In this document: in pieces, positions 12,999 to 31,092 of the stretch
Layout: the number at the start of each line of letters is the position of its first letter
Numbering within the stretch: position 1 is the first letter of the stretch
Origin: Candidatus Shapirobacteria bacterium
GTDB lineage: Bacteria; Patescibacteriota; Microgenomatia; UBA12405
Assembly: GCA_041659325.1 (NCBI GenBank)
Contig: JBAZYN010000001.1
Location: forward strand, 3,098-67,097
Length of the DNA stretch: 64,000 nucleotides
Reading direction: 5' to 3'
Made by a program: the position numbers and the translations under genes
The notes under the pieces: model-generated
The model's input: only the letters and a program-made list of their open reading frames with translations
What the model was told of the DNA's origin: nothing
The model's database searches: none

Positions 12999-15900
12999 AT
13001 GAAAAAGTCGACCAAGCTTTTATTTGTAATAATTTGTATTATTTTATTTCTATCCGGTTCACTGTTTCTTAGGCTAAAAATCAAAAAACCCGTCAACACA
13101 AGTGTTGTGCCAATGGATATCGAGTTTGCTGCCTCAAAAAAAAGTTCATCAGGGGTCGACCCCCAATCACCAATTATTATCTCCAGTAGTCAAACTCTTG
13201 ATGCCCAAGCCATTTCTCAAGCCATAAAAATTACCCCGGAAGCCGATTACTCGGTCAAAAAAATAAACGATAACTCAGCCGAGCTTAACTTTAGAAAACC
13301 TCTCGAAAAATCAACCGTCTATCAAATTAGTCTAAATCGCTCAAGATGGGCTTTTCAAATCGAGTCTCCCCTTGCCGTTACCGGTTCTTTGCCCGGCAAC
13401 AAATCTACCGATGTCAACCCCAATACCTCAATAGAGTTTTATTTGAATAATCCTGATTTTCTTACATCAGCCAACCAATATTTTAATATTCAGCCATCCG
13501 TTTCCGGCCGTTTTGAAAAACATCAAAATTCTCTCGTGTTCATCCCCTCATCTCTTACCGCCGACACCTTATACACCGTTACTCTTAAAAAGGGATTTCC
13601 TCTGGCCGACAATTCCCAAAAATTACCCGATGATTTTTCTTTTCAATTCGAAACAGGCAATACCGACAAAACTCAAGTTTCGCGTTTTGATTTTCAAAAA
13701 CCCATCTTCGAGTCATCTCCCGACAAACCTCCTATCGCCATTATCAGCAATTGGGATCCGCCCTCTCAAAAAGTAAAAGCCAAGCTTTATCAATTCAACA
13801 GTACTGATTTCCAAGACTGTCTGACCCAAAAGATTGCCCTTCCTTCCTGGGCTCGTCATAGCCGATATTATCGTTGCCAAACTACCGGGAAATCAATTTC
13901 TGAGTTTGAGTTGGACACAAAATCCCCCACAGAATATGGCTCGAAATACCTGGAACTTCCTTCAAAATTACCCATCGGGTATTATGCCCTTGAAGTCATC
14001 AACCCCGACACCTCAATCAGCCAAACATTAATTGAAGTATCACCCCTTTCATGGTTTTATTGGATAGGAGTCGATGATTCTTTGTTTTGGGTAAACGATT
14101 TGGTTTCTCAAAAACCACTTGCCGACGTTAAACTCTTTCTCGGCTCAAAAGAGCTTGGTGCTTCAAATACCGAAGGATTAGTCAAGCTCACTACCCACAG
14201 CGATTTAAAATCCCGTCAAAACCAAATACTAACCATAAAAACCGCCCTCTTTACCGCCTATAATCTCATTGAATATCAGAATACCTATGGCGGCTATTTT
14301 GCTTCTTCCGAAGCCGAAATAGAAAAAAACAAATATTGGTCGTATCTGTACACCGATAGAGCGATATATCTTCCTTCCGACAAGATTAGTTTTTGGGGCA
14401 TCGTAAAATCACGAGCCATCCAATCCCAAGAGCCAATTACCGTCGAGCTCTCCCGGAATTCTTACTCTTATTGGCGAGAGGAAAATTCTTCGGACAATAT
14501 AATCAAAAAAATAGAAATCACCCCATCCAATCATGGCACATTTCAGGGGGTCTTTGATTTCTCCAACCTAAACCCGGGATATTACAGTCTCATTGCCAAA
14601 AAAGGGGACACCTTTATCACCCAACAAGGTTTTTCGGTTGAAACTTTTAAAAAACCCATCTTTCGGATTACAGCTAAACCTCAAAAACTTGTCATCTGGG
14701 CCGGTCAGCCAAACAAAGTTGATCTTTCGGTAAAATTTTATGACGGCACTCCTGTTTCCGAGACCCCAATAGTTTGGAATATGTACGATAGCACCGGAAA
14801 TAAAAAAGGTGAAATTATAACCGACAAGGCCGGAAATGCTAGCCTTGAGATCCCAACCGTTTACGACTCAACAAAAAATTATTGGCCGCAAAATGTCTCG
14901 GTCAACTTCCGACCCAAGGGTATGCAGGAAGCCGACATCGACACCTACACTTCCTTCTTTGTGTTTGGGCCGGAATATAATTTGACCGTAGATTCGGAAA
15001 CCATAGACAGTCAATCCCGGATCACTGTCACCGTAAGAAAAAATGACCTAAGTTTATTAGAGAAATCTCCCTGGAAGAATGAAGGAAACCCGGTGGCAAA
15101 CCAGTCCGTTTCTGTCAAAACCGAACGGGTCTGGTACGACAAAGTAGAAACCGGAGACTACTACGATCCTATCAACAAAATCACCTCAAAAAGATATCGG
15201 TACGATAAAAAAACCGAAGGTGTGTCCAGCCAAAACTTAATCACCGATAGCAACGGCAAGGTCACCTATTCTCAGCCGGTTATCTCCGGTCAGCAATACG
15301 AAATTTTCGTCACTGCAATTGACTCCCAAAATCGGCCTACCAAATCCACTATCTATATTTCCGGCTCCAACTCGTCATCATTCGCTGATTTTTATGCCAA
15401 AACTTCAAAAGACAAGTATTCTCTCGGAGATCAAATAGAAGTATCTCTTAATTACGGCAATGATCCGGCTCCGACTTCCGAACCCAACAAATATCTCATT
15501 TTCTTTGTCAGAAATGGAAAAATTTATAACACGACCGTTTCCGAAAATAATAAACTTAGTTTTCAATTCGGAAACGATTACGTTCCAAATATAATTTTGA
15601 AAAGCGTTTGGTTTAGTGGTTCTACCTACAAGATCAGCAACAATGCCCGTAGCTTCTTGACAAACGGCCTCAACCTCACCTTCGACACCTCATCAAAGGA
15701 GCTGAATATTGATGCAAAAACCGACAAGTCAAAATATCAACCAGGGGAAGAAGCCCTGGTTGAATTATCTGTTAAAAATAACGCCAATCAGCCTCAACCC
15801 AATACCAAAGTCCTTCTTTCGGTGGTAGATGAGTCACTCAGTGATATCGGCGGAATCTCTTCTTCCGGCATCCTATCAGAATTATATTCTTCACTCGGTG

Positions 15901-17831
15901 AAGGTCGATTGGTAGATTATTACTCAAATCAAGTACCCGAAAATGGTGGCGGGGCCGAAGGCGGTGGCGGCGGTGGAGAGAGCCGTTCAGTATTCAAAAA
16001 TACTGTTGCTTTTACCGAACTCACCACCGATGCCACGGGGGTCGCTAAGTACAAACTAAAATTTCCCGACAATATTACCTCCTGGCGGGCTACCATGCTA
16101 GCCGTCGGGAATGATCTCTCGGCCGGAGATGGTCAGTTACTTATTCCTGTTACCAAGCCGCTTTTTGTCGACATAGTGACCAACGACGAATTTATCATCA
16201 CCGATAAACCAAAAATTACTGCCATCAGCTACGGCGAGGGCCTCGACACTGATTCGCAAATTAGTTATTCTCTTAACTCTCCCAGCTTAGGGATAAACCT
16301 CAAAAATATCTCCCAAAAAGCTTTTCTTCCGCTCGAATTTGATTTAGGTCAATTAGTCCCCGGGAAGCACCGCCTCGAGGTCAAGACTTCCTCCGGCAGC
16401 TTCAACGATATCCTGATTAAAACCATAGATGTGGTCAAAAGCCGAAACCTATTGCCAAAACAGGAAATAATAAGTTTAGACAAACAGTACAAGCCAATCT
16501 TTACCAGCCAACGCCCGGTGTACTTTACCTTTATCGACAAAGGCCTGAACTCCCTCTACTCAAAATTAAAACAATTTACCGGCCTCAACTCCTATGGTCT
16601 CAATGAGAGAGTAGACCGCCTAGTTGCAGAAAATATTTCTGTCGGACTTTTATCCCAATATTTTTCCGAAGATACGGTGGAAACCGAAGAAAGCTTTAGC
16701 CGGTATATCCACGAAAAAGGTGTCAGTCTCATGCCCAACTCCGATGCCGATCTGGTATTGACAGCCAAGTTCGCCGCCGCCAATCTTCCGCTCGTCAGTA
16801 AATCTCAGCTTTCCTCCGCCCTCTCGACCTACTTTCGTCAAGAAACTTCCATTGAGCGGGCCAGTGCCGCTCTTTGGGGTCTTTCGGAAACCGGCAAATC
16901 TCTTCTTACCTCCATCGATATCTTATCGAAAGAAAAAAATACTCCCCGGGGCCAAATCTATCTCGGGCTAGCTTTAGCTTCCCAGGGTGATCAAATTTCC
17001 GCCGGGAAGATCCTGAATGAAATTATTGCCAAATACGGCGTAAAACAGGATCCATATCTTTTCATCAAAGTCGACAACAATGAGCAAAATACCCTCGAAA
17101 ATACAGCTTTGGCCATGATCTTATCGGCCAAAGTCGGCTCCATTGAACTGCTTGATAAACTGTGGTCATATCTTGATATTGCCAAATCAGAAGAACAACT
17201 TTATGTCTTGGAAAAAGCCATTACCATAAAATCGTCCATCGCCTCATACCCATCATCACTCTCCGAGTTTGAATATCAGTTATTGGGTCAAAAGTTTACT
17301 AAAAAATTATCCGACGATAAAATCCATACAGTCGTGGTTCCTCAAAACGAATTATCCACTTTCTCTGCCACCCCTATTTCCGGTTCAGTCGATATTATTG
17401 TTCGCTGGTGGGAAGATTTTGACTTATCTCAAGTTACGGTTAACCAAAATATTTCTCTCGATGTTTCTACCGCTCCCATATCCAAAATATCCGGTTCTGA
17501 ATACATGGAGTTTATCGTTACCCCCAAAATTTCCAAAAACACCACCAACGAATCATATTTAGTTTCCGTCAATCTCCCCTCCGGGCTCAGACTAATCGAC
17601 AATCCCTACTTCTATAAAACCCTGAGCGGGAAAAATGAATTTTTCAGTTTCCCATCATATATTGAAAATAACCGGCTCATTTTCCGATCAAATTTTACCT
17701 ATCCTATTCGCTTTTTAGCCCGACCAATCAACAAAGGTCAATTTTCTTTCGAGCCGTCATTTCTTTATTCGTCAAGCACTATTAATCAGCTAAATGTCTC
17801 GAAACCTCATCCTGATATCACTATTAATTAG
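12999..17831 (+). CDS. Giant (1610 aa) secreted alpha-2-macroglobulin-family-like protein; MG/A2M_N domains, no visible CxEQ thioester
   Basis: N-terminal signal anchor; KTDKSKYQPGEEALVELSV...VLLSVVDESL resembles A2M_N; FTELTTDATGVAKYKLKFPDNITSWRATMLAV resembles A2M_N_2; size matches bacterial A2M. Confidence 0.5.
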   Translation: MKKSTKLLFVIICIILFLSGSLFLRLKIKKPVNTSVVPMDIEFAASKKSSSGVDPQSPIIISSSQTLDAQAISQAIKITPEADYSVKKINDNSAELNFRKPLEKSTVYQISLNRSRWAFQIESPLAVTGSLPGNKSTDVNPNTSIEFYLNNPDFLTSANQYFNIQPSVSGRFEKHQNSLVFIPSSLTADTLYTVTLKKGFPLADNSQKLPDDFSFQFETGNTDKTQVSRFDFQKPIFESSPDKPPIAIISNWDPPSQKVKAKLYQFNSTDFQDCLTQKIALPSWARHSRYYRCQTTGKSISEFELDTKSPTEYGSKYLELPSKLPIGYYALEVINPDTSISQTLIEVSPLSWFYWIGVDDSLFWVNDLVSQKPLADVKLFLGSKELGASNTEGLVKLTTHSDLKSRQNQILTIKTALFTAYNLIEYQNTYGGYFASSEAEIEKNKYWSYLYTDRAIYLPSDKISFWGIVKSRAIQSQEPITVELSRNSYSYWREENSSDNIIKKIEITPSNHGTFQGVFDFSNLNPGYYSLIAKKGDTFITQQGFSVETFKKPIFRITAKPQKLVIWAGQPNKVDLSVKFYDGTPVSETPIVWNMYDSTGNKKGEIITDKAGNASLEIPTVYDSTKNYWPQNVSVNFRPKGMQEADIDTYTSFFVFGPEYNLTVDSETIDSQSRITVTVRKNDLSLLEKSPWKNEGNPVANQSVSVKTERVWYDKVETGDYYDPINKITSKRYRYDKKTEGVSSQNLITDSNGKVTYSQPVISGQQYEIFVTAIDSQNRPTKSTIYISGSNSSSFADFYAKTSKDKYSLGDQIEVSLNYGNDPAPTSEPNKYLIFFVRNGKIYNTTVSENNKLSFQFGNDYVPNIILKSVWFSGSTYKISNNARSFLTNGLNLTFDTSSKELNIDAKTDKSKYQPGEEALVELSVKNNANQPQPNTKVLLSVVDESLSDIGGISSSGILSELYSSLGEGRLVDYYSNQVPENGGGAEGGGGGGESRSVFKNTVAFTELTTDATGVAKYKLKFPDNITSWRATMLAVGNDLSAGDGQLLIPVTKPLFVDIVTNDEFIITDKPKITAISYGEGLDTDSQISYSLNSPSLGINLKNISQKAFLPLEFDLGQLVPGKHRLEVKTSSGSFNDILIKTIDVVKSRNLLPKQEIISLDKQYKPIFTSQRPVYFTFIDKGLNSLYSKLKQFTGLNSYGLNERVDRLVAENISVGLLSQYFSEDTVETEESFSRYIHEKGVSLMPNSDADLVLTAKFAAANLPLVSKSQLSSALSTYFRQETSIERASAALWGLSETGKSLLTSIDILSKEKNTPRGQIYLGLALASQGDQISAGKILNEIIAKYGVKQDPYLFIKVDNNEQNTLENTALAMILSAKVGSIELLDKLWSYLDIAKSEEQLYVLEKAITIKSSIASYPSSLSEFEYQLLGQKFTKKLSDDKIHTVVVPQNELSTFSATPISGSVDIIVRWWEDFDLSQVTVNQNISLDVSTAPISKISGSEYMEFIVTPKISKNTTNESYLVSVNLPSGLRLIDNPYFYKTLSGKNEFFSFPSYIENNRLIFRSNFTYPIRFLARPINKGQFSFEPSFLYSSSTINQLNVSKPHPDITIN

Positions 17832-19056: not shown

Positions 19057-19485
19057 ATGAAAAAGAATATTCCTTGCCTGATTTTTGTTACACTGGCGAC
19101 ATTGATTTTTTTTACACCTGCCTCTGCTCAGGCAGCAAAAAAAAGGGTATTTAAATCAGGATCGTCTGGCTCTAATTTGTCTACCGGTACACCCGCCGTC
19201 TATCTCAGCCTCCGCCGCGACCGTCTGGCCCTAAACATGTCCTTCGTCAACCTCAAGGCCACCAAATCGGCCACCTACGAGTTAACTTATCAAGGTAGTG
19301 GCAATGATCAGGGGGTATTTGGGTCTGTAAAACCAACGGAGTCGGGCCAGCGCACCCTATATTTTGGTACCTGCTCGCATGCCGTTTGTAACCCCCACAA
19401 AAATATCCAAAATATGAGATTGTCAATAAAATATACCCTAAATAATGGTAAAACCATTTCCAAAAGGTATAAAGTAAAAGTCTAA
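19057..19485 (+). CDS. Secreted hypothetical protein
   Basis: Signal peptide ...FFTPASAQA followed by AKK. Confidence 0.45.
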   Translation: MKKNIPCLIFVTLATLIFFTPASAQAAKKRVFKSGSSGSNLSTGTPAVYLSLRRDRLALNMSFVNLKATKSATYELTYQGSGNDQGVFGSVKPTESGQRTLYFGTCSHAVCNPHKNIQNMRLSIKYTLNNGKTISKRYKVKV

Positions 19486-19781
19486 GACCGAACTTTTTTT
19501 ATCTTAATCCCATACATTATTATCCCTTTCCCGTCGGTATCTGCGATTCGTCTAAATACACACTTTACTTTATCTCCGATTTCCAAAAGCTCGTTATCAA
19601 CACCCATTAATTCCCGGCATTCGTCCCCAAATCTAACCAGAGAAAAGGTATACGGGGCCATATTTTGCAACATCAAGGGCGGCACTCGGATAGTCGTCGT
19701 CGCCACCACCTCTCCCTCTTTACCTATTATTTTTGCCCACCCCTTGTTGGCTCTCCAATATTCTGCCGGATATCCTTTCAC
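19482..19781 (-). CDS. DUF35-like OB-fold protein (partner of the archaeal thiolase/HMG-CoA synthase complex), lacking the Zn-ribbon
   Basis: VPPLMLQNMAPYTFSLVRFGDECRELMGVDNELLEIGDKVKCVF resembles the DUF35 OB-fold; 4-nt overlap with the thiolase gene. Confidence 0.55.
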   Translation of the reverse strand: MKGYPAEYWRANKGWAKIIGKEGEVVATTTIRVPPLMLQNMAPYTFSLVRFGDECRELMGVDNELLEIGDKVKCVFRRIADTDGKGIIMYGIKIKKVRS

Positions 19782-20893
19782 TTTTTACCTCCCAATATAT
19801 GAACTACTGCCGTTGCGCCGCTGCCACCCACGTTCTGTGCCAGTCCGGTTTTTATTTTTTTATCTAAAATCAGCTGCGATAAATAAGCAATTTGTTTTAT
19901 GCCGGTTGCCCCCACCGGATGTCCGTTGGATTTCAACCCTCCCGAAGGATTAATTACAACTTTTCCTCCATATGTAGTTTTCCCCTCAATCGTTGCTTTC
20001 CCCCCCATCCCTTTTTTAAAAAACCCCAGGTCCTCGATTGCCAAAATTTCCGCAATAGAAAAACAATCATGAATTTCTGCTGCCCCAATATCGTCTGGCC
20101 CTACGCCAGCCATTTTGTATGCGATCTTCGCCGCTTTTACCCCGGCCTCGATGGTGGTCAGTGAATTTCTTTTTGCCAAGGACAAGCTGTCCATTCCTTG
20201 TCCAAACCCAATAATTTGCGGGCAATTTAATCCATATTTAGTCGTCAAAATCACCGCGGCCGCCCCGTCCGAAATAGGGGAGCAATCAAACAATCTAAGC
20301 GGGGCAGCAATGATTTCACTTTCATTCACTTCCGCTATAGTTATTTCTTTGTGGAATTGTGCCAGTGGGTTCAAAAGTCCATGTTTATGGTTTTTAACAC
20401 TAACCGCCGACAGCTCATCCCTTGTCGTTCCGAATTCCTTCATGTGTTTCTGAGCCATCAGTGCATATAACCCCGGAAACGTGCTTCCGTATTCCATCTC
20501 CACGTCCGCCGCCCCCACCAAACCTTCTGTCGCCGTCGGGTTTGATACATCAGTCATCTTTTCTGCTCCTACCACCATTACAGTTTTATATCTGCCCGAC
20601 AATAGAGCCAATTCTGCCGCAATCATTGCCAAACCGCCCGAAGCACAGGCCCCCTCAATTCTCATTGCCGGTGGCTGATTTTTTAGTATCTGGCTTGCCA
20701 TTGCTCCCAAATGAAGTTGCCCGTCAAATATTCCGCCGGCCATATTTGAAACAAAAATTGCTTCAACTTCTTTATCATCCAAATTAGAATTTTTTATCAC
20801 TCCCTGTACAGCTTCAGTCAGCAGATCTTTTAAACTCTTCTCCCATAATTCCCCGAATTTAGTAATGTATGATCCGGCCACAAATGTCTTCAT
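19778..20893 (-). CDS. Thiolase (acetyl-CoA C-acetyltransferase, archaeal / SCP-x-like type)
   Basis: GACASGG active-site Cys, CSPISDGAAA, HDCF, NPSGGL...GHPVGATG. Confidence 0.85.
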   Translation of the reverse strand: MKTFVAGSYITKFGELWEKSLKDLLTEAVQGVIKNSNLDDKEVEAIFVSNMAGGIFDGQLHLGAMASQILKNQPPAMRIEGACASGGLAMIAAELALLSGRYKTVMVVGAEKMTDVSNPTATEGLVGAADVEMEYGSTFPGLYALMAQKHMKEFGTTRDELSAVSVKNHKHGLLNPLAQFHKEITIAEVNESEIIAAPLRLFDCSPISDGAAAVILTTKYGLNCPQIIGFGQGMDSLSLAKRNSLTTIEAGVKAAKIAYKMAGVGPDDIGAAEIHDCFSIAEILAIEDLGFFKKGMGGKATIEGKTTYGGKVVINPSGGLKSNGHPVGATGIKQIAYLSQLILDKKIKTGLAQNVGGSGATAVVHILGGKK

Positions 20894-21951
20894 TTTTCCG
20901 TCCTTTTTCTGTATTCACTATAACTTATGAAACGATTACCAATCTGGCTTGATAGAAAATTGTTCCAGTCAGCCTTCCTCTCCTGCATGTTCTCAGCACA
21001 GTTAAAAGCAAAACAATCAGATCCGGCCCCCGATCCGTATGAAGCCATAAAAATTTTCTCTCCCCCCTTCGCCTGGTCAAGTACATTAGTCAGCGCCATC
21101 AAGCTAGCGGCTGCATAGGTATTGCCAATCGTCCGGACGACCAGGCTATGTTTAATTTGGTCTTCCGAGCAGCCCATTGTTTTTGCCACCGCTTTTGGGA
21201 ATTTCCCGTTTGGTGTATGAAAAATACAATAGTCAAAATCACTGATTTTCATATCCAGGTCAGACAAAAGTTTCCTACCGGCAGTCAGGATATGGTTAAA
21301 ATATGCCGGTTCCCCGGAAAATCTGCCTGCATGTTCAGGAAATTCCTGCCTCGGCCGTCTCCAGAAATCAGGCGTATCCGTTGCCACCGATACCGTGCCA
21401 ACCATTTCTGCCAGTAAATTTTCCCTGCCGACAAAAAATGCAGCTCCGCCTGCTCCAGCAGTATATTCCAACACGTCACCAGGCCGCGACTGAGCTGTAT
21501 CTACCCCTATTGCCAGGCCAAAATCTGCCATCTTTGACTTTACATAGGCAAAACACGCCTGCAAACTTTGGGTTCCTGCCTTACAGGCAAACTGCATATC
21601 TGCCATGGCCATATATTTCTGCAACCCCAGGGCCTGAGCCACAATTCCCGAAGTTGGTTTTACCGCATAAGGATGGCTCTCGCTCCCCACAAATATTACC
21701 CCCATTTTTTTCTCCAAAAACTCTCTTTCTGTCAGCCTTAAATATGCCTGATATGCCGCCTCTACGGCAATAGTTGTACTGTCTTCGTCTATTCCTGGTA
21801 CAGTTTTCTGTTCCACTCCCAAAACCGGCCCCATATCCTTACCGTTGTGAGCCTGGGCAATTTCACCGCTTTTGATTACTGATTCCGGAATATACGCGCC
21901 ATAAGACACAATTCCGACACTTTTGTCCATGTAAGTATTATGTCGACTCAC
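20890..21951 (-). CDS. Hydroxymethylglutaryl-CoA synthase, archaeal-type (about 350 aa)
   Basis: GSESHPYAVKP, ACKAGT (catalytic Cys), IFHTPNGKFP, YGSGAGSD. Confidence 0.85.
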   Translation of the reverse strand: MSRHNTYMDKSVGIVSYGAYIPESVIKSGEIAQAHNGKDMGPVLGVEQKTVPGIDEDSTTIAVEAAYQAYLRLTEREFLEKKMGVIFVGSESHPYAVKPTSGIVAQALGLQKYMAMADMQFACKAGTQSLQACFAYVKSKMADFGLAIGVDTAQSRPGDVLEYTAGAGGAAFFVGRENLLAEMVGTVSVATDTPDFWRRPRQEFPEHAGRFSGEPAYFNHILTAGRKLLSDLDMKISDFDYCIFHTPNGKFPKAVAKTMGCSEDQIKHSLVVRTIGNTYAAASLMALTNVLDQAKGGEKIFMASYGSGAGSDCFAFNCAENMQERKADWNNFLSSQIGNRFISYSEYRKRTEK

Positions 21952-21995: not shown

Positions 21996-22457
21996 ATGAT
22001 CAACTTAAAAGATGCCATTCATTGGTATAGAAAACTACCAGAGAAAAAGCTCTATCTCGAATCTATCAGCGCTTTACTGACTATCCCGGTCTTGGTTACA
22101 GTCATCCTCTCAAATGTCATCAATCTTAAAAAAACCGCCCTATCAACTGCTACACCCATTACCTCTTCGCCGACGGTTATCCCCACTCATGTGGATACTG
22201 TATCTCCGACACTAGCTCCGGTTGTTACCGTCCAAATCGTTTATGTTACTCCTACCGGCGTTTCGACGATAGTTCCAACTAGCACAATAGTTCCTACCCC
22301 CACCGCCACCTTCACCCCCACCCACACCTCGACACCCTCTCCCAGCCCTACCACGATCCTCAATACTCCTACTCCTAGTTCAACTTCTACCCCGACTCCC
22401 ACAGCGGCATTAATACCATCGGACACTCCGACCGTTCAACCAAGCCCGACTATTTGA
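21996..22457 (+). CDS. Membrane-anchored Thr/Pro/Val-rich low-complexity protein
   Basis: TM helix, then PTPTATFTPTHTSTPSPSPT-type low complexity. Confidence 0.45.
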   Translation: MINLKDAIHWYRKLPEKKLYLESISALLTIPVLVTVILSNVINLKKTALSTATPITSSPTVIPTHVDTVSPTLAPVVTVQIVYVTPTGVSTIVPTSTIVPTPTATFTPTHTSTPSPSPTTILNTPTPSSTSTPTPTAALIPSDTPTVQPSPTI

Positions 22458-22531: not shown

Positions 22532-23134
22532 ATGAAAACCGAAGTAATCTTTGATATTGAAACCAAAAAATTATTTGAAGATATCAGTTCGTTTAACCCC
22601 GCCGACCTTGGTGTTTCTATCGTCTCTTTGTATTTCCGCCAGGTAGACGAAAATTTAATCGAAAAGGAGGGCCAAATATATAGTTTCTGGGAAAACGAAT
22701 TTTCGAATATGTGGGATTATTTTTCCAAGGCGGATCGGATAATCGGTTTTAATTCCCTTGGTTTTGACATACCGGCGCTAGTTCCGATCTCCCCTCTGAA
22801 TTTTAAGAAACTGCCCCATTTCGATCTGATGGACAAGATTAAGCAAAATTTGGGTTTTCGCCTTGGGCTCGACGCTGTTGCCAAAGAATGTTTAGGGCAT
22901 GGGAAAACGGATATCGGCACCAATGCCGTAGTTTATTGGAACGAAAATACCGCCGAAAGTCTGGCAAAATTAAAAAAATACTGTGAAATGGACGTGTTTG
23001 TTACCAAAGATATTTATGACTATGGTCTCAAAAATAAACATTTAAAATACAAAGATAAATGGAACACATCCCGGGTTTTCCCCATAGACTTTTCTTATCC
23101 GCAGTCAGAAAAAAATCAGATTAGTCTTTTTTAG
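22532..23134 (+). CDS. RNase H-like 3'-5' exonuclease (DEDDy, PolB-exonuclease-like / YprB-like)
   Basis: Exo I IFDIET, Exo II IIGFNSLGFDIPAL, Exo III YCEMDVFVTKDIY. Confidence 0.55.
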   Translation: MKTEVIFDIETKKLFEDISSFNPADLGVSIVSLYFRQVDENLIEKEGQIYSFWENEFSNMWDYFSKADRIIGFNSLGFDIPALVPISPLNFKKLPHFDLMDKIKQNLGFRLGLDAVAKECLGHGKTDIGTNAVVYWNENTAESLAKLKKYCEMDVFVTKDIYDYGLKNKHLKYKDKWNTSRVFPIDFSYPQSEKNQISLF

Positions 23135-23724
23135 CTATTCATGAGTATGGATGTCTCACCCTGAACCCTTTTCAAAACTGCCGCCATTTCTTCAGATATT
23201 TTACTATATGATCTTTTTTGAAGAATTTTAAGTATTTCCCCATAAAACCAAAATAATTTGTTTGATGCAACTCCCATTTTATTCCACAATTCCTTGCCCG
23301 TTGTTTTCATCGAGTTGGAAATTACCGTCAGGGTTACAATCTTGTCTGCTGCGCAAATCAACATTGCCTCCTGGCTCATCGTCTCTGCGTGTTGAAGGTA
23401 CTTATTTTTTCTTTCCTCCCACGATGCCTGTCCCTTCAATTCGGATCCGGCCTCTTTGTCCTCGCTCACATCGAACACCATGGCCATAACCAATTCTCCA
23501 AAATCATTTTTAATATCAACAAACGAATAATCATCAACATTGTTTACCACGTTATGAACCAAACCGGCCACAATTACATTTTCGTCATTCGAATAATTAG
23601 AGAGTACCCAGGCAACCTCAAGTAAGTGCACGATAAAAGGTAAATTATCACCCTGGCGGACTTGCCCGGCATGTTTCTCTGCCGCAATCTTAATTGCCTT
23701 TTGAATTTTCGGTGTTAATTGCAT
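23131..23724 (-). CDS. HD-domain protein related to the RelA/SpoT (p)ppGpp-hydrolase domain, with degenerate HD (HN) dyad
   Basis: KHAGQVRQGDNLPFIVHLLEVAWVL, then AGLVHNVVNN where SpoT has GLLHDVVED. Confidence 0.55.
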   Translation of the reverse strand: MQLTPKIQKAIKIAAEKHAGQVRQGDNLPFIVHLLEVAWVLSNYSNDENVIVAGLVHNVVNNVDDYSFVDIKNDFGELVMAMVFDVSEDKEAGSELKGQASWEERKNKYLQHAETMSQEAMLICAADKIVTLTVISNSMKTTGKELWNKMGVASNKLFWFYGEILKILQKRSYSKISEEMAAVLKRVQGETSILMNS

Positions 23725-23745
23725 TACTTATATTTAAACATGAAT

Positions 23746-24627
23746 CTAGAGAATTTTACTGTCAGCCTCGTTCTTCTGAATTACTTCAAGGATATAGGTA
23801 TCAGCCCCATATTCATCATTTCCCACAAACCGACCCTCTCCATTCAAAATTCTTTCAAACGGCAGACATTCCCGACATCCGTCCCCTTGCGGACATTTAA
23901 AAATTTGCATTTTTCTGGATAATTTTATCTTTCTGGCAATTTTGAGGATTTTACTCTTTGACACCTCCAAATCGGGCAATGGTTTGGGTGTTAGCTCATC
24001 ATTCTTTTCCAGATACCAATAACTTGCTTTTGTAGTCTCCCGTTTTTGGCAATTAGCCACCAACAATCGGTAAATGGGAAGTTGCAGCGACTCGGCCCCC
24101 TCTTCATTTTTACTGGTTTTAAAATCAATAATATGGACACTGTCCGTCTCCGGCAAATATTCAAGCCAGTCAATCTTTCCGCACAGGATTATATTATCTT
24201 CTTCGGATAGCCAATAATATGGTAAATCCTGGTTTATTTTTCCTGCTAAGCCTGCAATTGGCCCCGGGTTTTTCATCACCCGCCGTATCATTTCTTCACC
24301 CCGACTTTTATATTTATACTCTGTTTCGGCATCACCAAAACCACCTTTTTCTGCCGAAATATTTATCCAAGCTCGCTCATATTTATCCAAAAGTGATTCC
24401 TTAAATCTGCTGCTCACCGGCAGCACTGATAGTGACTCTATAACTTGATGAACCGCTTGCCCCAAAGCCAGAGGAGGGGACATAATTTTAATTTTATGGC
24501 CGGTCTTTGGGTCCTTATAAACATTTTTAAGATAATACGATCGGGGACACGACTGAAACGCACTGATTGATGAATGCGACACCCACACTGCGCTATATTT
24601 ATCCTTGGTCACACCTCTATGATACAC
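23746..24627 (-). CDS. PD-(D/E)xK nuclease superfamily protein, Cas4/RecB-like with a 4-Cys (Fe-S) cluster
   Basis: ISAFQSCPRSYYL; D...IIDFKTSK core; C-terminal CPQGDGCRECL. Confidence 0.6.
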   Translation of the reverse strand: MYHRGVTKDKYSAVWVSHSSISAFQSCPRSYYLKNVYKDPKTGHKIKIMSPPLALGQAVHQVIESLSVLPVSSRFKESLLDKYERAWINISAEKGGFGDAETEYKYKSRGEEMIRRVMKNPGPIAGLAGKINQDLPYYWLSEEDNIILCGKIDWLEYLPETDSVHIIDFKTSKNEEGAESLQLPIYRLLVANCQKRETTKASYWYLEKNDELTPKPLPDLEVSKSKILKIARKIKLSRKMQIFKCPQGDGCRECLPFERILNGEGRFVGNDEYGADTYILEVIQKNEADSKIL

Positions 24628-24629
24628 TA

Positions 24630-26120
24630 ATGACTATGTCTAGACCTGAAGCAGGAAACGCCTTGCTACTAGTTGGTCCTCAATACTTTGACAATAGACT
24701 CCCTATTAGCTCTATAAGCCGTAGAGTTTTGGAACGAACAGATCCTTTGGGGATAGGAATTGTTAGCGCCGTTTTAAAAAAACATGGTTTAAAAACCCAT
24801 CTGGAAATTATGAGACCGGGCCATATTAACGATCTACAGTCTTATATTGAAGCCGCCGGTTCTGTTTTTATCTCTTCCAGATTCTATGATACAAGTTCAG
24901 CCCAAGAGGCTATAAGAATTGCCAATAAAGCCGGAAAAACAGTGATTACCGGCGGTTACGGTCCCACCCTCGACCCCGCTTCTTTTGATCGCTCAACCGC
25001 CATTGTCCAAGGTGAGGCGGAACCGGTATTAGATCAGTTAGTTGATGACTTAAAAAGTGGTCATCTGGAACCGGTTTACGATTCTACTAAACTTCCTCCG
25101 TTTGATCTTGACCAGTATATTTGGCCGGATAGAAGTATTTATCCAAGACCTGGTTTCGGAATTCCCAAAAAACACTCCCAGGAATTGGCTAGGGGCTGTG
25201 AAGAAGGGCACTGTATCTTTTGTTCCGGAGTACAATTGCAACGGACGTTTCGCTCAAGAGATTCCCGAGATACAATCGCTGAAATCGAGTCAATGGGAAT
25301 TAGAAAAAGTGATTTTTTATTTTTTGTCGATTTAAACACGTTTTCTGTTCCCAGGGAAAGGTTGGTACCCCTTTTTACTTACTTAAAACAAAACAGAATC
25401 AAGTGGATATCAGAGGGCACGGTTGCCCCGTTATTGGCAGACTTAGAACAGTGTGGGAAAGACGACAGCCTTCTTGCACTCATGTCTCCTCAGGATGGGC
25501 TAGGTGGCTGTTATTCATTTTTATATGGCGCCGATGATCTAATCAGTACCAGAGTTAAAGGTTCCCGTGACAAGGAAAAGACAATGTTGGCACAAACGGT
25601 TAAAGTTTTCAGTGAATTCGGGATCCCCCTAAATCTTTCTGTAGTTGTTGGTTTAGACAACCATACTTTTCCTGATTCATTCTTCCAAATAGCCGATACC
25701 CTGAGGGAAATACGGGCTCCGTATACTTTTTTTCACATTGCCACTCCATACCCCGGTACTGTTTGGGGAGACAAAGTGTCGCAGCAAGGTAGAGTCACTG
25801 ATTTGGATTCCACCCATTTTAACCACCGCAGAGTCGTTGCTGCCCCCAAAAATATGTCGGCCGATGAACTACAACAAGGTTACTTTTGGTTACAGAGAAA
25901 ACTTTACAACCCGGGAGAAATTGCAGAAACGTTTAAAGCACATCATAGAAAACGGTCACCCAACGTTGTTCTCGATGCCTTTTCATCCGGTCTCCCTTTT
26001 GCTGTTGACACATTTTTAAGCAATCTTGAATTAGACGCCAGGGGATTCGTAGACCATAGGGCTTTAAGAAATCTGGACGAGGGATATACTAGATGGAAGA
26101 GTGCCAGTCATGAGAATTAA
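24630..26120 (+). CDS. B12-binding-like plus radical-SAM-like protein with non-canonical Cx4Cx2C motif
   Basis: N-terminal Rossmann-like segment (LLLVGPQYF...IGIGIVSAVLKKHG); CEEGHCIFCSG; start set at the internal Met to avoid overlapping the convergent gene. Confidence 0.5.
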   Translation: MTMSRPEAGNALLLVGPQYFDNRLPISSISRRVLERTDPLGIGIVSAVLKKHGLKTHLEIMRPGHINDLQSYIEAAGSVFISSRFYDTSSAQEAIRIANKAGKTVITGGYGPTLDPASFDRSTAIVQGEAEPVLDQLVDDLKSGHLEPVYDSTKLPPFDLDQYIWPDRSIYPRPGFGIPKKHSQELARGCEEGHCIFCSGVQLQRTFRSRDSRDTIAEIESMGIRKSDFLFFVDLNTFSVPRERLVPLFTYLKQNRIKWISEGTVAPLLADLEQCGKDDSLLALMSPQDGLGGCYSFLYGADDLISTRVKGSRDKEKTMLAQTVKVFSEFGIPLNLSVVVGLDNHTFPDSFFQIADTLREIRAPYTFFHIATPYPGTVWGDKVSQQGRVTDLDSTHFNHRRVVAAPKNMSADELQQGYFWLQRKLYNPGEIAETFKAHHRKRSPNVVLDAFSSGLPFAVDTFLSNLELDARGFVDHRALRNLDEGYTRWKSASHEN

Positions 26121-26820
26121 CAAATATTTATCCTCAATCGGAGTTGCCTCGCGACGGGCTGTTGATAAACTTATTTCTGAGAATAGAGTCAGGATAAACA
26201 AAAATTATGCCCGGCTAGGGGATCAGGTTGATCCCCAAAAAGATGGAATAGAAGTAGACAACAAACCGGTCAGCAAAACAAACCCCTTTTTTGAGTACAT
26301 TATTTTAAACAAACCCGAAGGAGTAATTTCCTCTACCGTCGACACTCACGATCGCCAAACCGTTCTCGATCTGGTCCCAAACAAATCACGCCTATACCCC
26401 GTAGGCCGCCTGGATTACGATTCCTCTGGGTTAATCTTGTTGACCAACGATGGTGATCTGGCGTTAAAGCTCACTCATCCCCGATTTCATTTACCAAAAA
26501 CTTATCACGTCACAGTCACTGGGTTAGTTGATGACCGAAAAATTAATAAGCTCAAAAAAGGGGTAGATCTGGAAGACGGTAAAACTCTCCCCTGCGATAT
26601 TTCCATCATCACTCGTCACCCGGGCAATACAGTTTTAGAAATTATCCTGTATCAGGGCAAAAAACGTCAAATAAGACGAATGTGTGAATCAGTTTCGCTA
26701 AAGGTCTGGAAATTGCATCGGGTAGCCATCGGCCCGATCACAATTGGCGAGCTTAAATCGGGAAAATATCGTCATCTTAAAAAGGATGAAATCTCCCGTC
26801 TAAAACAAATCAGCATTTAA
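26101..26820 (+). CDS. Pseudouridine synthase, RsuA/RluB family, with S4 domain
   Basis: MRINKYLSSIGVASRR (S4); VGRLDYDSSGLILLTNDG catalytic Asp motif. Confidence 0.85.
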   Translation: MPVMRINKYLSSIGVASRRAVDKLISENRVRINKNYARLGDQVDPQKDGIEVDNKPVSKTNPFFEYIILNKPEGVISSTVDTHDRQTVLDLVPNKSRLYPVGRLDYDSSGLILLTNDGDLALKLTHPRFHLPKTYHVTVTGLVDDRKINKLKKGVDLEDGKTLPCDISIITRHPGNTVLEIILYQGKKRQIRRMCESVSLKVWKLHRVAIGPITIGELKSGKYRHLKKDEISRLKQISI

Positions 26821-26836
26821 TGTAATATACTTTTTT

Positions 26837-27646
26837 ATGTTTTCGATATTCAAAAAACCGCCGGTAATTGGCCTTGCTCTTGGAAGCGGTGGTGCCCGTG
26901 GACTGGCGCACATTGGGGTTATTAGATCTCTTTTAGAAAACGATATTTATCCCGGAGTTATTACCGGTTCTTCAGCCGGTGCCCTAATCGGTGGGCTATA
27001 CTCCGCCTTTGGGAGGCTTAACGAAATCAATAAAATCGTTGATTCTATTGATTACCGTTTTATTCTAAAACTCATACTTGAGAGGCCAAGCAAGCAGGGA
27101 GTTGTCCGTGGTAATAAACTCGAGTCTTTTATAAACGAACAGGTGGGCAGTTTATCCGTCGAAAACACAAAAATACCCTTTTACGCGGTTGCTTCTGATC
27201 TGGTCTCCGGCCAGCCTTACGTTTTTAAAAAGGGCCCTCTCTCGATCGCCATTCGGGCATCAATATCGATTCCGCTATTTTTTTCCCCGGTTAAACTAGC
27301 CAATACTATTTTGGTCGATGGCGGTGCTTCCGTCCCCGTCCCGGTAGACATTGCCCGACAAAACGGGGCGGATTTTGTAATCGGTGTAAATCTTTATAAG
27401 TCATATTTTCCTCTTCCCCACGAAAAAGTAGACAAATCTAATATTTCAAAACTAGCTTTTTATTCCTCCCAAATAGTTCTAAATAGTCTATCGCAGGAAA
27501 ACAATTCCCACGCCGATTTCCCTCTGGATCTCGAGATTCCCATCCAAAATACTCTTGATTTTGTCAAGGCCAAAAAATTTGTTGATATGGGTTATGAACA
27601 GACTCAATCAAAAATCCGGGATATTCTAAAAAAACTTTACAAATAA
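26837..27646 (+). CDS. Patatin-like phospholipase
   Basis: GLALGSGGARG oxyanion motif, GSSAG nucleophile elbow, DGG. Confidence 0.85.
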   Translation: MFSIFKKPPVIGLALGSGGARGLAHIGVIRSLLENDIYPGVITGSSAGALIGGLYSAFGRLNEINKIVDSIDYRFILKLILERPSKQGVVRGNKLESFINEQVGSLSVENTKIPFYAVASDLVSGQPYVFKKGPLSIAIRASISIPLFFSPVKLANTILVDGGASVPVPVDIARQNGADFVIGVNLYKSYFPLPHEKVDKSNISKLAFYSSQIVLNSLSQENNSHADFPLDLEIPIQNTLDFVKAKKFVDMGYEQTQSKIRDILKKLYK

Positions 27647-27669
27647 TCAACTGTGATAAAATTAACCTA

Positions 27670-28554
27670 ATGATAAACTGGCTAAAGAAAAATTGGGCAT
27701 TGGCTATTCTTATTATTATTGTTTTGAGTTTTCTAAAAGAGCGATTTTTGGGCTCAGGAAATCTTTCTCTTCGTAATTCTGCCTCATATGACATGGCTAT
27801 GGGAGGTGTTGCCCCCGCCCCAGCCGCCAAAATATCATCCCTGTCAAGCCGCACTGATTTTGTCCCTGAGTCAATTGCTCCCTCCGATGCGGTTGACCGC
27901 ATGGTTATACAAGATACTAGCTTATCGCTTGTTGTAAAGGATGTGTCTACTGTAATTTCTCAAATCGAAACCGCCGCCAAAGGTTTTGGGGGCTATCTTG
28001 TTAACTCTTATCTGTCAAAACCTGAAGCCGCCGCAAGCGGCAACATAGTTATTCGTGTCCCCGAGGGAAAACGCACCGAAGCTCTAAGCGCCTTAAAAGG
28101 ATTTGCTATCAAAGTCGTTTCCGAATCAGTCTCCGGCACCGATGTTACCGACGAGTATGTTGACCTTCAGGCCCGTTTGGATATTTTATATAAAACCAAG
28201 GCAAAATTCGACGAAATCTCTGCTAAAGCCTATACGGTAAATGATCTTCTGGAGGTCAATCGTGAGCTAATCAATGTTCAGTCGCAAATTGACTCTATCA
28301 AAGGTCGGCAAAAATATTACGAACAATCTGCAAAACTCAGCAAAATTACCGTCTATCTGTCGACCGATGAAATGTCTCTGCCCTACGCGCCCACCAACGA
28401 ATGGCGCCCGGCCGTCATTTTTAAAGAAGCCGTCAGATCCCTGGTTGGTGCCTTGAGAAATATTGGGACACTCGCCATTTGGCTTGTTGTTTTCTCTCCG
28501 GTAATTATCCCTGCTGTCTTGCTCTATCGGTGGTACAGAAGTAAAAAGAAATGA
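27670..28554 (+). CDS. DUF4349-domain protein (TM, extracytoplasmic domain with coiled coil, C-terminal TM)
   Basis: Architecture and IVIRVPEGK...VSGTDVTDEYVDLQARLD resemble DUF4349. Confidence 0.5.
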   Translation: MINWLKKNWALAILIIIVLSFLKERFLGSGNLSLRNSASYDMAMGGVAPAPAAKISSLSSRTDFVPESIAPSDAVDRMVIQDTSLSLVVKDVSTVISQIETAAKGFGGYLVNSYLSKPEAAASGNIVIRVPEGKRTEALSALKGFAIKVVSESVSGTDVTDEYVDLQARLDILYKTKAKFDEISAKAYTVNDLLEVNRELINVQSQIDSIKGRQKYYEQSAKLSKITVYLSTDEMSLPYAPTNEWRPAVIFKEAVRSLVGALRNIGTLAIWLVVFSPVIIPAVLLYRWYRSKKK

Positions 28555-29750
28555 ACCGTCGGGCAATTTTTACGATCTTTACCATCGTCCTCACTGATCT
28601 GATTGGTTTTGGAATAATTATTCCTATCTTGCCAGCTATTAGTCAAAGTATGGGTGTCAGAGGTTTTTGGTTGGGCTTGTTGATATCCTCTTACGCCATT
28701 GCCCAATTTATTTCAGCCCCGATTCTGGGAAATCTATCTGACCGTTACGGCCGCAAACCGATTTTGGTAATCAGCAAACTCGGTACGGTCATTGCTTATA
28801 TAATCTTTGCCTTTTCGAGAAGTTTTTCTGTCCTACTAATTTCCCGCCTGATTGATGGTTTTACCGGGGGGAATATCCCTGCCGCCCGTGCCTATATAAG
28901 TGATATCACCACCAAAGAAAACCGCTCTCGTGGTATGGCAATCATTGGGATTTCTTTCGGGTTAGGCTTTATCATTGGCCCGGCCCTTGGTGGTATTTTT
29001 TTTACAATCGGAAAATCACACACCCTTCCTGCCCTTGTCGGAGCCCTGCTTAGTTTTATTTCTTTGGTACTCACTCAAGTCTTTCTGGATGAATCACACC
29101 GCCTCAGTAAACCGGTTGTTTCCCGTACTTTTTCCATAAAAAACTTTCTAAAAGTGTTTGAAAACAAAACTATCCAGCAGATACTTATAATTCAATTCAT
29201 TATTATGACGGCCACCTCAGGTTTTCAAACCACTATTTCCTTTTTTACGGATAAAATTTTCCGCTACACTCCTCAACAAAATAGCCTCATGTTTGTGTAT
29301 TTCGGGGTACTCGGATTAGTAGTTCAGGGCTATCTTGCCAGCCGTCGTGGACCAAATGTTCACAGGATGATAAAAATTGGAATTATCGTTAATGCTGCCG
29401 GTATTATTTTTCTCTCTCTTAGCCCCACCTCCTCGCTATTTCTAGCTTCAATTGCCTTAACCTCGGCCGGTGGTGGTTTAATCGGGGTATTTTTACCGAC
29501 TCTACTTTCAACTGTCGACAGCAAAGATCCGGAAGGGGAAGTTATGGGTGCATATGAGGGTATTGGCAGCCTTGGTAGAGTCATTGGTCCGGCCATTATC
29601 GGCAGTCTTATTGTAATTTTTCCCAGGCAAATTTATTTCACTTGCGGAATAGCAGTTCTTGCTACTATATTCTTTCTAAAAAAAATTAACCTAAAACCGC
29701 AATATTCCAAACCCTATCAAGGCAGTCACGATCAGATATATTCCGATTAG
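28551..29750 (+). CDS. MFS transporter (drug:H+ antiporter-like)
   Basis: 12 predicted TM helices; GNLSDRYGRKP MFS motif A. Confidence 0.85.
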   Translation: MNRRAIFTIFTIVLTDLIGFGIIIPILPAISQSMGVRGFWLGLLISSYAIAQFISAPILGNLSDRYGRKPILVISKLGTVIAYIIFAFSRSFSVLLISRLIDGFTGGNIPAARAYISDITTKENRSRGMAIIGISFGLGFIIGPALGGIFFTIGKSHTLPALVGALLSFISLVLTQVFLDESHRLSKPVVSRTFSIKNFLKVFENKTIQQILIIQFIIMTATSGFQTTISFFTDKIFRYTPQQNSLMFVYFGVLGLVVQGYLASRRGPNVHRMIKIGIIVNAAGIIFLSLSPTSSLFLASIALTSAGGGLIGVFLPTLLSTVDSKDPEGEVMGAYEGIGSLGRVIGPAIIGSLIVIFPRQIYFTCGIAVLATIFFLKKINLKPQYSKPYQGSHDQIYSD

Positions 29751-29904
29751 TGTCGACAACAACTTCGGGTTCAAAAGAATCAAAATCCCAAATATTAAAG
29801 ACATTATCGGGCTTAAATTTTTTAGTATCATAAAAAATAATATCACTTCCTTGACATTTTTGTCCAATATTTATATCCTTTCAATACCCAAACAAAACCC
29901 AAAT

Positions 29905-31092
29905 ATGACTCTTTCCCAACCACTGGCTTCAATTCTTCGACCCAAAAATCTCGCCGAATTTATTGGTCAGTCACACCTTGTCGGTCCCGGCAAGCCGCTT
30001 CGTTTAGCCATAGAAACTCGTCAGCTTTTTTCTATGATTTTTTGGGGGCCGCCGGGGGTGGGAAAAACTACCTTAGCCCGGATTATTGCCAAAGAATGCG
30101 GGGTTGAAATATACGATCTTTCCGCCGTATCAGCCGGTAAAGACGACATCAAAAAAATCATCGGTTCTTCGGCTCCGGACCTTTATCAAAAAGTATTGTT
30201 TCTTGATGAAATTCATCGTTTCAACAAAGCTCAACAGGATTTCCTTCTGCCCTACGTCGAAAGTGGCAAGTTAACCCTGATCGGCGCCACCACCGAAAAT
30301 CCCAGTTTTGAAATTATTTCTCCTCTCCTTTCTCGTTGTCGTGTTTTTGTTTTAAAGGAACTTTCTGCCGATGAAATGAATCAAATAATTGAACGGGCCC
30401 TGCCCGTCATTGCGAGGAGCTCCGCAACGAAGCAATCTATAAAAATTAACCCTCCCACTCGTGAATGGCTGATCAACATGGCCAATGGTGATGCCCGTCA
30501 ATGCCTAACCATGATTGATAATGCCTTCACCCTTTATGGCAAATTAACCATCGATACCCTAAAATCTACTCTGCAAAATTCTTATCTCCGTTTCGACAAA
30601 AAAGGCGAGGAGCACTACAACACCATTTCCGCCTTTATAAAATCTATGCGGGCCTCAAACGTTGATGCCGCGGTTTATTATTTAGCCCGGATGATTGAAG
30701 CCGGTGAAGACCCAAAATTTATTGCCCGCCGCATGGTTATCTTTGCCTCCGAAGATATTGGTATTACCAACTCCTCGGCTCTAATGTTGGCCAATCAGGT
30801 CTTTCAATCAGTTACCTTAATTGGCTACCCAGAATGCGCTATTAATTTAGTCCATGGTGTAGTTTATTTGGCCAAATCCGCCAAAAATAGATCAGCCTAC
30901 GATGCCCTCCGCTCCGCCCAAACAGACGTCAGACAGTTGGGTAATCTGCCGATTCCCCTCGAACTCCGCAATGCCGAAACCAAGTTAATGGAAGATTTAG
31001 GTTATGGCAAAGGCTACGAAAAATATTCTCAAAAAGATCTGCTTCCTGATAAACTAAAAGGTAAAAAATATTTTAAAGATTTAAAAAAATAA
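29905..31092 (+). CDS. rarA: Replication-associated recombination protein A (RarA/MgsA AAA+ ATPase)
   Basis: Walker [10 protein letters not shown], Walker [12 protein letters not shown], sensor [10 protein letters not shown]; the track ORF starts at a TTG at 29851, and ATG 29905 is taken as the start. Confidence 0.88.

Follow-up and report, generated by a model that had tools for sequence, protein, structure and literature searches.

A nuclease-rich group of four genes in a Candidatus Shapirobacteria genome is most likely a product of inherited gene order and two insertions

Four adjacent genes at positions 22532-26120 of a 64-kb stretch of DNA (hereafter, the window) from a metagenome-assembled genome of Candidatus Shapirobacteria encode an exonuclease, an HD-domain protein, a PD-(D/E)XK nuclease and a radical S-adenosylmethionine (radical-SAM) protein. 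A first inspection, based on the letters of the DNA only (the sequence-only reading), had recognized nucleic-acid-processing or radical-chemistry signatures in all four and suggested that they might serve together in DNA repair or as a defence-like module not yet characterised. All four open reading frames (ORFs) have been confirmed, and the domain and motif calls proved correct. The idea of a joint module fared worse, as all four genes stand together only in the window (with the locus L001) and in the closest relative, L005. Most likely, with a probability of about 0.8, the genes do not form one system but represent a conserved housekeeping backbone of the Microgenomates type plus two accessory genes, each protein working on its own.

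The locus

The same four ORFs, identical in sequence, are found in an independent Logan assembly of the same organism, and the composition of the region is unremarkable (GC content of about 42-43%). The genes had been described as lying on alternating strands; their actual order is + - - +. The exonuclease and HD genes converge and overlap by 4 nt, while the HD gene follows the nuclease gene after 21 nt, both being on the minus strand. The nuclease and radical-SAM genes diverge, their start codons being only 2 nt apart if the latter begins with ATG 24630. This start, which gives a protein of 496 aa, was preferred to TTG 24567 of the sequence-only reading, situated 63 nt further upstream, because the homologues are 487-508 aa long. 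At its other end, the radical-SAM gene overlaps with its stop the start of a gene for an RluB-type pseudouridine synthase by 20 nt. A scan for promoters and terminators was uninformative, with counts at chance level and no signals above it. The positions of the four genes and of other features of the window are collected in Table 1.

Table 1. Genes of the cluster and further features of the window
Feature	Positions	Strand	Size; basis
Stand-alone DEDDy exonuclease, similar to the exonuclease of family-B polymerases	22532..23134	+	200 aa; PF13482, PF10108
Homologue of RelH/Mesh1-type small alarmone hydrolases with a degenerate site (HD gene)	23131..23724	-	197 aa; PF13328
Fe-S PD-(D/E)XK nuclease of the Cas4/AddB/AdnAB fold	23746..24627	-	293 aa; PF12705
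Radical-SAM protein with a B12-binding-like domain	24630..26120	+	496 aa; homologues, AF2 model
Backbone: RluB-type pseudouridine synthase, patatin, DUF4349, MFS transporter, RarA/MgsA ATPase	26101..31092	+	Pfam
Backbone on the other side: DUF35-type OB protein, thiolase, HMG-CoA-synthase-like gene	19482..21951	-	Pfam
Alpha-2-macroglobulin-like protein	12999..17831	+	1,610 aa; A2M_BRD, A2M, MG2, Big_5
Protein with a Pro/Thr/Ser-rich C-terminal half	21996..22457	+	153 aa
Tandem repeats	63795..63997		units of 18-36 nt

The four proteins

The nuclease matches the PF12705 profile with 77 bits (cutoff 22), while the Cas4 model PF01930 gives 17.6 bits, below its cutoff of 22.7. Its family comprises 6,628 matches, the best of which (65-73% identity) are distributed across Woesebacteria, Shapirobacteria and Magasanikbacteria; the mean column identity in the alignment is 76%, and the motifs GKID, DFK and QLPIY are invariant. 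The long start of the gene is backed by homologues of about 290 aa and by a Pfam alignment that begins at profile position 2. Six cysteines never vary in the family (C27, C149, C193, C245, C251, and C254). Four of them, C27 and C245-x5/6-C251-x2-C254 (CX5-6CX2C), are of the staple type, and the four-cysteine cluster noticed earlier is hence real, its C-terminal part being spaced CX5CX2C in the window protein. In Cas4, AddB, and Dna2, the usual spacing is CX2CX5C, i.e., the reverse. The family is further marked by a conserved acidic tail at the C-terminus, which closes with S[K/R][I/V]L and in which the final Leu never varies.

No solved structure matching the nuclease was found by a sequence search of the PDB. 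A confident AlphaFold2 (AF2) model with a mean predicted local distance difference test score (pLDDT) of 83.6 found its best Foldseek match in ACE1, followed by the nuclease domains of AdnAB, AddAB, Dna2, RecB, and Cas4; for ACE1 and AdnAB, the Foldseek probability is 1.00 and the template modelling (TM) score is 0.53-0.61. With the Cas4, ACE1 and AddB-AdnAB-Dna2 nuclease domains, it has in common the RecB-type PD-(D/E)XK core and a set of cysteines, one near the N-terminus and three near the C-terminus, that would allow an Fe-S staple. Unlike Cas4, ACE1, and the AddB-AdnAB-Dna2 group, it stands alone, without a cas, Argonaute, or helicase partner, and it differs from Cas4 also in falling under the Cas4 Pfam cutoff and in being a core, highly conserved gene rather than an accessory one. 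In comparison with L005, the gene shows a nonsynonymous divergence (dN) of 0.09 at saturated synonymous sites, indicative of purifying selection. The nuclease is a core gene of Patescibacteria; like the exonuclease, also a strongly conserved core gene, it does not resemble defence genes in its conservation. Its fold and motifs suggest a core Fe-S DNA-end processor of the RecB/AddB/Cas4 fold, the DNA-end substrate being a prediction. A stand-alone nuclease of this kind, so strongly conserved, core in Patescibacteria and lacking a solved or characterised orthologue, is one of three modest leads.

The HD protein scores 51.6 bits against PF13328 (HD_4; cutoff 27.2), and among solved structures it comes closest to two small alarmone hydrolases of the RelH type, 7QOC (E 1.6e-27) and 7QOE (E 3.4e-25). 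Like RelH of Corynebacterium glutamicum (7QOC/7QOD) and of L. levettii (7QOE), as well as Mesh1, it is a single-domain protein of about 195 aa, the match spanning residues 3-187. In C. glutamicum RelH, R24, H34, H58-D59, E62-D63, D122-K123, and N126 are catalytic (PMC9293644). Of the equivalents, the window protein retains R23 (HD1 Arg), H33 (HD2 His), H57 (HD3 His), and D127-K128 (HD5 Asp-Lys). It departs from RelH and Mesh1 in the HD3 dyad, which reads H57-N58 and lacks the Asp ligand of Mn2+, in the HD4 catalytic Glu-Asp pair, replaced by N61-N62, and in the base-contacting Asn of HD6, which is T131 here and is kept in close relatives. The HN dyad had already been pointed out, in a domain described as SpoT-like; the two other changes are additional to it. 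Because of the substitutions in HD3 and HD4, both the Mn2+ site and the catalytic pair are incomplete.

These changes are a property of a clade: clusters at 72-82% identity read H[N/S]..[N/E]N throughout, while Patescibacteria homologues at 40-48% identity retain HP…HD..ED. Since dN in comparison with L005 is 0.18 with synonymous sites saturated, the gene is maintained by purifying selection and is not decaying, despite the loss of four catalytic residues. The protein is a homologue of small alarmone hydrolases but, judging from its residues, probably not a hydrolase itself: with neither the Asp that binds Mn nor the Glu-Asp pair needed for catalysis, it would probably be unable to hydrolyse (p)ppGpp. 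A nucleotide-binding or regulatory role appears most plausible, possibly with co-transcription with the nuclease gene. The persistence of purifying selection in a clade of small alarmone-hydrolase homologues that has lost catalytic residues is a second lead. Canonical homologues of small alarmone hydrolases encoded at L044 and L045 are not near the nuclease gene. At L045 (1-12579), the canonical Patescibacteria enzyme is found among nucleotide-housekeeping genes (NUDIX, HD_3, Ham1p, and two CTP_transf_like), and this run lies downstream of a SMODS/AGS_C gene, which encodes a cyclase of the CBASS (cyclic oligonucleotide-based antiphage signalling system) type.

The exonuclease exceeds the cutoffs of both PF13482 (RNase_H_2; 40.1 bits, cutoff 22) and PF10108 (DNA_pol_B_exo2; 35.3 bits, cutoff 24). 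The Exo I (D8/E10), Exo II (N74/D79, Nx4D), and Exo III (Y150/D154, Yx3D) residues, previously reported as intact, do not vary among five orthologues of 60-74% identity. Weak matches in the PDB and PHROGs involve Pol delta and exonuclease regions from family-B polymerases, with which the DEDDy motifs are shared; unlike these polymerases, the protein is only 200 aa long and has no polymerase domain.

A feature that the sequence-only reading had passed over is the C-terminus (window positions 23117-23134), which ends in QISLF; in orthologues, the ending is QIGLF, QLGLF, QMGLF, or QISLF. One of these, QLGLF, is also the C-terminus of E. coli Pol II. The consensus for binding to the bacterial β-clamp is QL[S/D]LF or, more generally, QxxLF (PMC12309361). 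Among 79 stand-alone representatives of the exonuclease (clustered at 50% identity), 25 carry a clamp-type motif in the last nine residues, against a mean of 0.55 in shuffled tails; 13 of them have QxxLF, and 12 have hexapeptide-like variants (QMTLGL, NLTLPF, and similar). No such tail motif was found among the homologue sets of the three other proteins. The conserved QISLF tail fits a β-clamp-binding motif and resembles those of bacterial polymerases, although clamp binding is read here from the sequence. The protein may accordingly be pictured as a putative 3′-5′ DEDDy enzyme tethered to the β sliding clamp by its C-terminal QxxLF, which would probably trim 3′ ends or mismatches in replication or repair. 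As a third lead, an exonuclease of the family-B polymerase type with a conserved clamp-binding tail may act as a proofreader in trans or as a 3′-end trimmer.

For the radical-SAM protein, the B12-binding profile PF02310 gives 20.3 bits, below the cutoff of 32.1, and PF04055 gives no match at E<=0.1. Many members of the family nevertheless carry both domains in precomputed annotations, and weak NCBIfam matches include BchE, HpnJ, and other B12 radical-SAM models. Of the profiles that the sequence-only reading had proposed as checks, PF13482 scored above cutoff and Cas4 (PF01930) and PF02310 below it, while PF04055 gave no match. The family is small (about 45 clusters at 90% identity), its members being 40-53% identical to the window protein; those with a named source come from Patescibacteria or Candidatus Beckwithbacteria, with one genome record titled Gammaproteobacteria.

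The motif CEEGHCIFC, noticed earlier in this protein of roughly 500 aa, is indeed present, and its context, RGCEEGHCIFC, represents CX4CX2C, that is, a one-residue insertion in the cluster loop that is unique to this genome within the family. In L005, the closest relative (70% identity), and in each of the 44 homologue clusters with coverage of this region, the motif has its canonical form, RGCxxxCxxC (CX3CX2C). The spacing CX4CX2C is also known from the active cobalamin-dependent enzyme OxsB (PMC9204698). An assembly error is unlikely, as the insertion is in frame and the independent Logan assembly is identical. Decay of the gene was considered and rejected: of 98 highly conserved columns of the family, the protein deviates at 4, within the range of the other members (1-17), and the ratio of nonsynonymous to synonymous divergence (dN/dS) in comparison with L005 is 0.13, which corresponds to purifying selection.

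The AF2 model (pLDDT 90.3) begins with a Rossmann domain, continues with a radical-SAM barrel, and ends in a helical domain; it matches AprD4, TsrM, MgmA (9CCB), CysS, and MiaB/RimO (Foldseek E 4e-16 to 1e-12). This three-part architecture is shared with AprD4, TsrM, MgmA, CysS, and OxsB, but identity to them is only 13-17%, and the family, unlike these enzymes, is restricted to Patescibacteria. The domain of AprD4 equivalent to the B12-binding one is not known to use cobalamin. Cobalamin use by the window protein is uncertain. The protein may be described as a sporadically distributed enzyme of class-B architecture with predicted SAM-radical chemistry.

Two observations on its orthologues may be added. 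At L024 (1546-2892), the orthologue is distributed over three reading frames, and the same split points recur in L025, L026, L028, and L029; these contigs come from several metagenome samples. The gene may have become a pseudogene there, or the contigs may have a frameshift or an assembly feature in common. At L032 (1-4900), an island resembling a restriction-modification locus (SNF2 helicase, N6_Mtase/Eco57I, HSDR_N) lies 5 kb upstream of the orthologue P0031 and is followed by about ten small ORFs without Pfam matches.

Gene neighbourhoods among relatives and the origin of the cluster

The presence of the four genes varies from locus to locus (Table 2). For the radical-SAM gene, a profile scan yielded 3 loci in the genome collection and 25 loci in metagenomes, and look-ups of exact proteins gave further neighbourhoods.

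Table 2. Presence of the four genes at the compared loci
Locus	Lineage	Present	Absent
Window (with L001), L005	own lineage	exonuclease, HD, nuclease, radical SAM, all adjacent	
L041	close relative (RarA 90%, nuclease 88% identical)	exonuclease, HD, nuclease	radical SAM
L042/L043	close relatives	HD, nuclease	exonuclease, radical SAM
L034/35, L039/40	Woesebacteria	exonuclease, nuclease	HD, radical SAM
L036	Shapirobacteria	nuclease; exonuclease 0.9 kb away	HD, radical SAM
L037/38	Magasanikbacteria	nuclease alone	exonuclease, HD, radical SAM
About 27 other radical-SAM loci	various Patescibacteria	radical SAM	exonuclease, HD, nuclease

It follows from this distribution that the constant element is the core nuclease within a syntenic housekeeping block. 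The RluB, patatin, DUF4349, MFS, and RarA genes flank the nuclease also in Woesebacteria and in Shapirobacteria relatives. In Woesebacteria, the order is MFS, DUF4349, (PMT_2), patatin, and RluB, then the nuclease gene diverging from RluB and converging with the exonuclease gene; at L034/35 and L039/40, the ends of the two convergent genes overlap by 4 nt. At L041, RluB directly adjoins the nuclease gene and diverges from it, and the nuclease gene is followed on the same strand by the HD gene, which converges with the exonuclease gene. At L042/L043, where RluB is absent too, patatin diverges from the nuclease gene, and the HD gene and the HMG-CoA synthase gene follow co-directionally. In L041 to L043, the block of DUF35, thiolase, and HMG-CoA-synthase-like genes borders on either the HD gene or the exonuclease gene.

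The HD gene occupies this place only in one Shapirobacteria sublineage, where in five of five loci (the window with L001, L005, L041, L042, and L043) it is on the same strand as the nuclease gene at a distance of 21-22 nt. The radical-SAM gene is found here only in the window (with L001) and in L005, and it is co-oriented with RluB in this genome only. Elsewhere, its immediate neighbours are heterogeneous: FemAB, NUDIX, H+-PPase, cytochrome b5, RNHCP, GT4, VanW, an aminoacyl-tRNA synthetase, RecO, a flippase, and a 5′-3′ exonuclease. The PDDEXK_1 gene that adjoins it in L032/L033 was rejected as support for a link: the hidden Markov model (HMM) of the core nuclease misses its product at E<=0.01, which assigns that protein to a different family.

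The exonuclease is an old neighbour of the nuclease, and the HD gene is an insertion common to one sublineage; the radical-SAM gene was either inserted even later or has disappeared from the closest relatives. The older arrangement would have been an exonuclease gene converging with the nuclease gene, which in turn diverged from the row RluB-patatin-DUF4349-MFS-RarA. Into it, the degenerate HD gene would have been inserted between the nuclease and exonuclease genes in one Shapirobacteria sublineage, and the radical-SAM gene between the nuclease gene and RluB. In essence, the members of the proposed four-gene unit are not kept together in relatives and have housekeeping orthologues, the very outcome that the sequence-only reading had named as refuting it. 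The arrangement of the genes, with one pair converging and another diverging, further weakens the view of a single unit.

Several points weigh against so dispersed a picture. The nuclease neighbourhoods inspected were 12 (about six distinct lineages) out of thousands of homologues. The adjacency of exonuclease and nuclease recurs in several Microgenomates lineages, in Woesebacteria sometimes with Pol IV, so some coupling of the two in DNA repair is possible; and the nuclease-HD pair, co-directional at 21 nt and present at each of the five loci of its lineage, could be an operon. What survives of the cluster as a functional grouping, on weaker grounds, is the conserved adjacency of exonuclease and nuclease in Microgenomates and the lineage-specific co-directional nuclease-HD pair.

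Each of these two pairs can be made the basis of an alternative. The exonuclease and nuclease might be a conserved DNA-repair pair, sometimes joined by Pol IV, with the HD and radical-SAM genes as passengers. Both genes are highly conserved and are adjacent or nearly so in the window, L005, L041, L034/35, L039/40, and L036; a Pol IV gene (IMS family) adjoins the exonuclease gene in L034/35 and lies within 4 kb in L036, and the putative clamp-binding tail suggests that the enzyme acts in repair or at the replication fork. However, the two genes converge and therefore are not co-transcribed, the exonuclease is missing from the L042/43 and L037/38 loci, and no IMS gene occurs anywhere in the 64-kb window. 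Moreover, RluB, patatin, DUF4349, MFS, and RarA are equally syntenic, so inherited gene order suffices to explain the adjacency, and the repair pair remains an unlikely, if respectable, proposal. The other pair, the nuclease with its catalytically dead alarmone-hydrolase homologue, could be a two-gene operon in which the pseudo-hydrolase senses nucleotides of the (p)ppGpp/(p)ppApp type and regulates or partners the nuclease. Besides the constant spacing on one strand, the signature H[N/S]..[N/E]N common to a clade under purifying selection and the retained HD1 Arg, HD2 His, and HD5 Asp-Lys speak for it. Such an operon is quite improbable given that the pairing is limited to one narrow sublineage, that the nuclease functions without the HD gene in thousands of other genomes, that canonical homologues elsewhere are unlinked to the nuclease, and that promoter and terminator signals did not exceed chance. 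That a dead alarmone hydrolase was recruited downstream of the core nuclease as a nucleotide-sensing, non-catalytic partner in one Shapirobacteria sublineage is a long shot; if true, with a clamp-tethered exonuclease nearby, the processing of DNA ends would be tied to alarmone levels in an organism whose repair repertoire is minimal.

The proposal of an uncharacterised anti-phage module made up of all four genes has already been largely refuted and is now hardly credible. Nuclease, HD, and radical-SAM domains are all known from defence systems, and the best structural match of the nuclease is ACE1, an Argonaute-associated Cas4 protein. A search with PADLOC (PADLOC-DB 2.0), however, gave for the nuclease only weak Cas4-like matches, including Argonaute-associated ones (best 2e-08), and none for the exonuclease, HD, and radical-SAM proteins; of ten flanking genes, eight had no match, and two had weak generic ones (patatin and P-loop). 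No system layout emerged, and the earlier statement that the cluster corresponds to no defined CRISPR, restriction-modification, or defence layout agrees with the Pfam, PADLOC, and repeat scans. There is no CRISPR-type array among the tandem repeats of the window, and neither Argonaute nor cas genes are among the genes annotated around the cluster, whose flanks are of the housekeeping type. The near-universal, strongly conserved nuclease, the variable membership of the cluster among close relatives, and the convergent or divergent orientation of the genes, in place of one operon, all speak against a defence module as well. A phage origin was also considered and set aside: the similarities found in PHROGs were only generic ones (to exonucleases, polymerases, and phosphohydrolases), and the radical-SAM protein had none.

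The preferred reading thus remains a conserved housekeeping backbone with two accessory genes. Each of the four proteins belongs to a known superfamily or is a variant of one, and in public records they already have generic names. The details that set them apart are modest: the HN/NN clade of hydrolase homologues, the reversed cysteine spacing of the nuclease, CX4CX2C in a single genome, and the clamp-binding tail of the exonuclease. The value of the analysis is mainly that of a negative result, since inherited gene order and two insertions explain a cluster that looks nuclease-rich in a compact Patescibacteria genome, and for this reason the cluster should be dropped as a candidate defence system.

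Other features of the window

Scans for tRNA genes and for Rfam families gave no matches in the window. The DUF35-type OB protein, thiolase, and HMG-CoA-synthase-like genes are packed into a compact operon, stops overlapping with starts, which corresponds to an archaeal-style acetoacetyl-CoA/HMG-CoA synthase complex in a Patescibacteria genome. The gene for the large alpha-2-macroglobulin-like protein (Table 1) is conserved beside the same block in the relatives L042/L043. The C-terminal half of the 153-aa protein encoded just before the exonuclease gene is strongly enriched in Pro, Thr, and Ser, and the tandem repeats close to the end of the window apparently encode a Pro/Thr-rich sequence.

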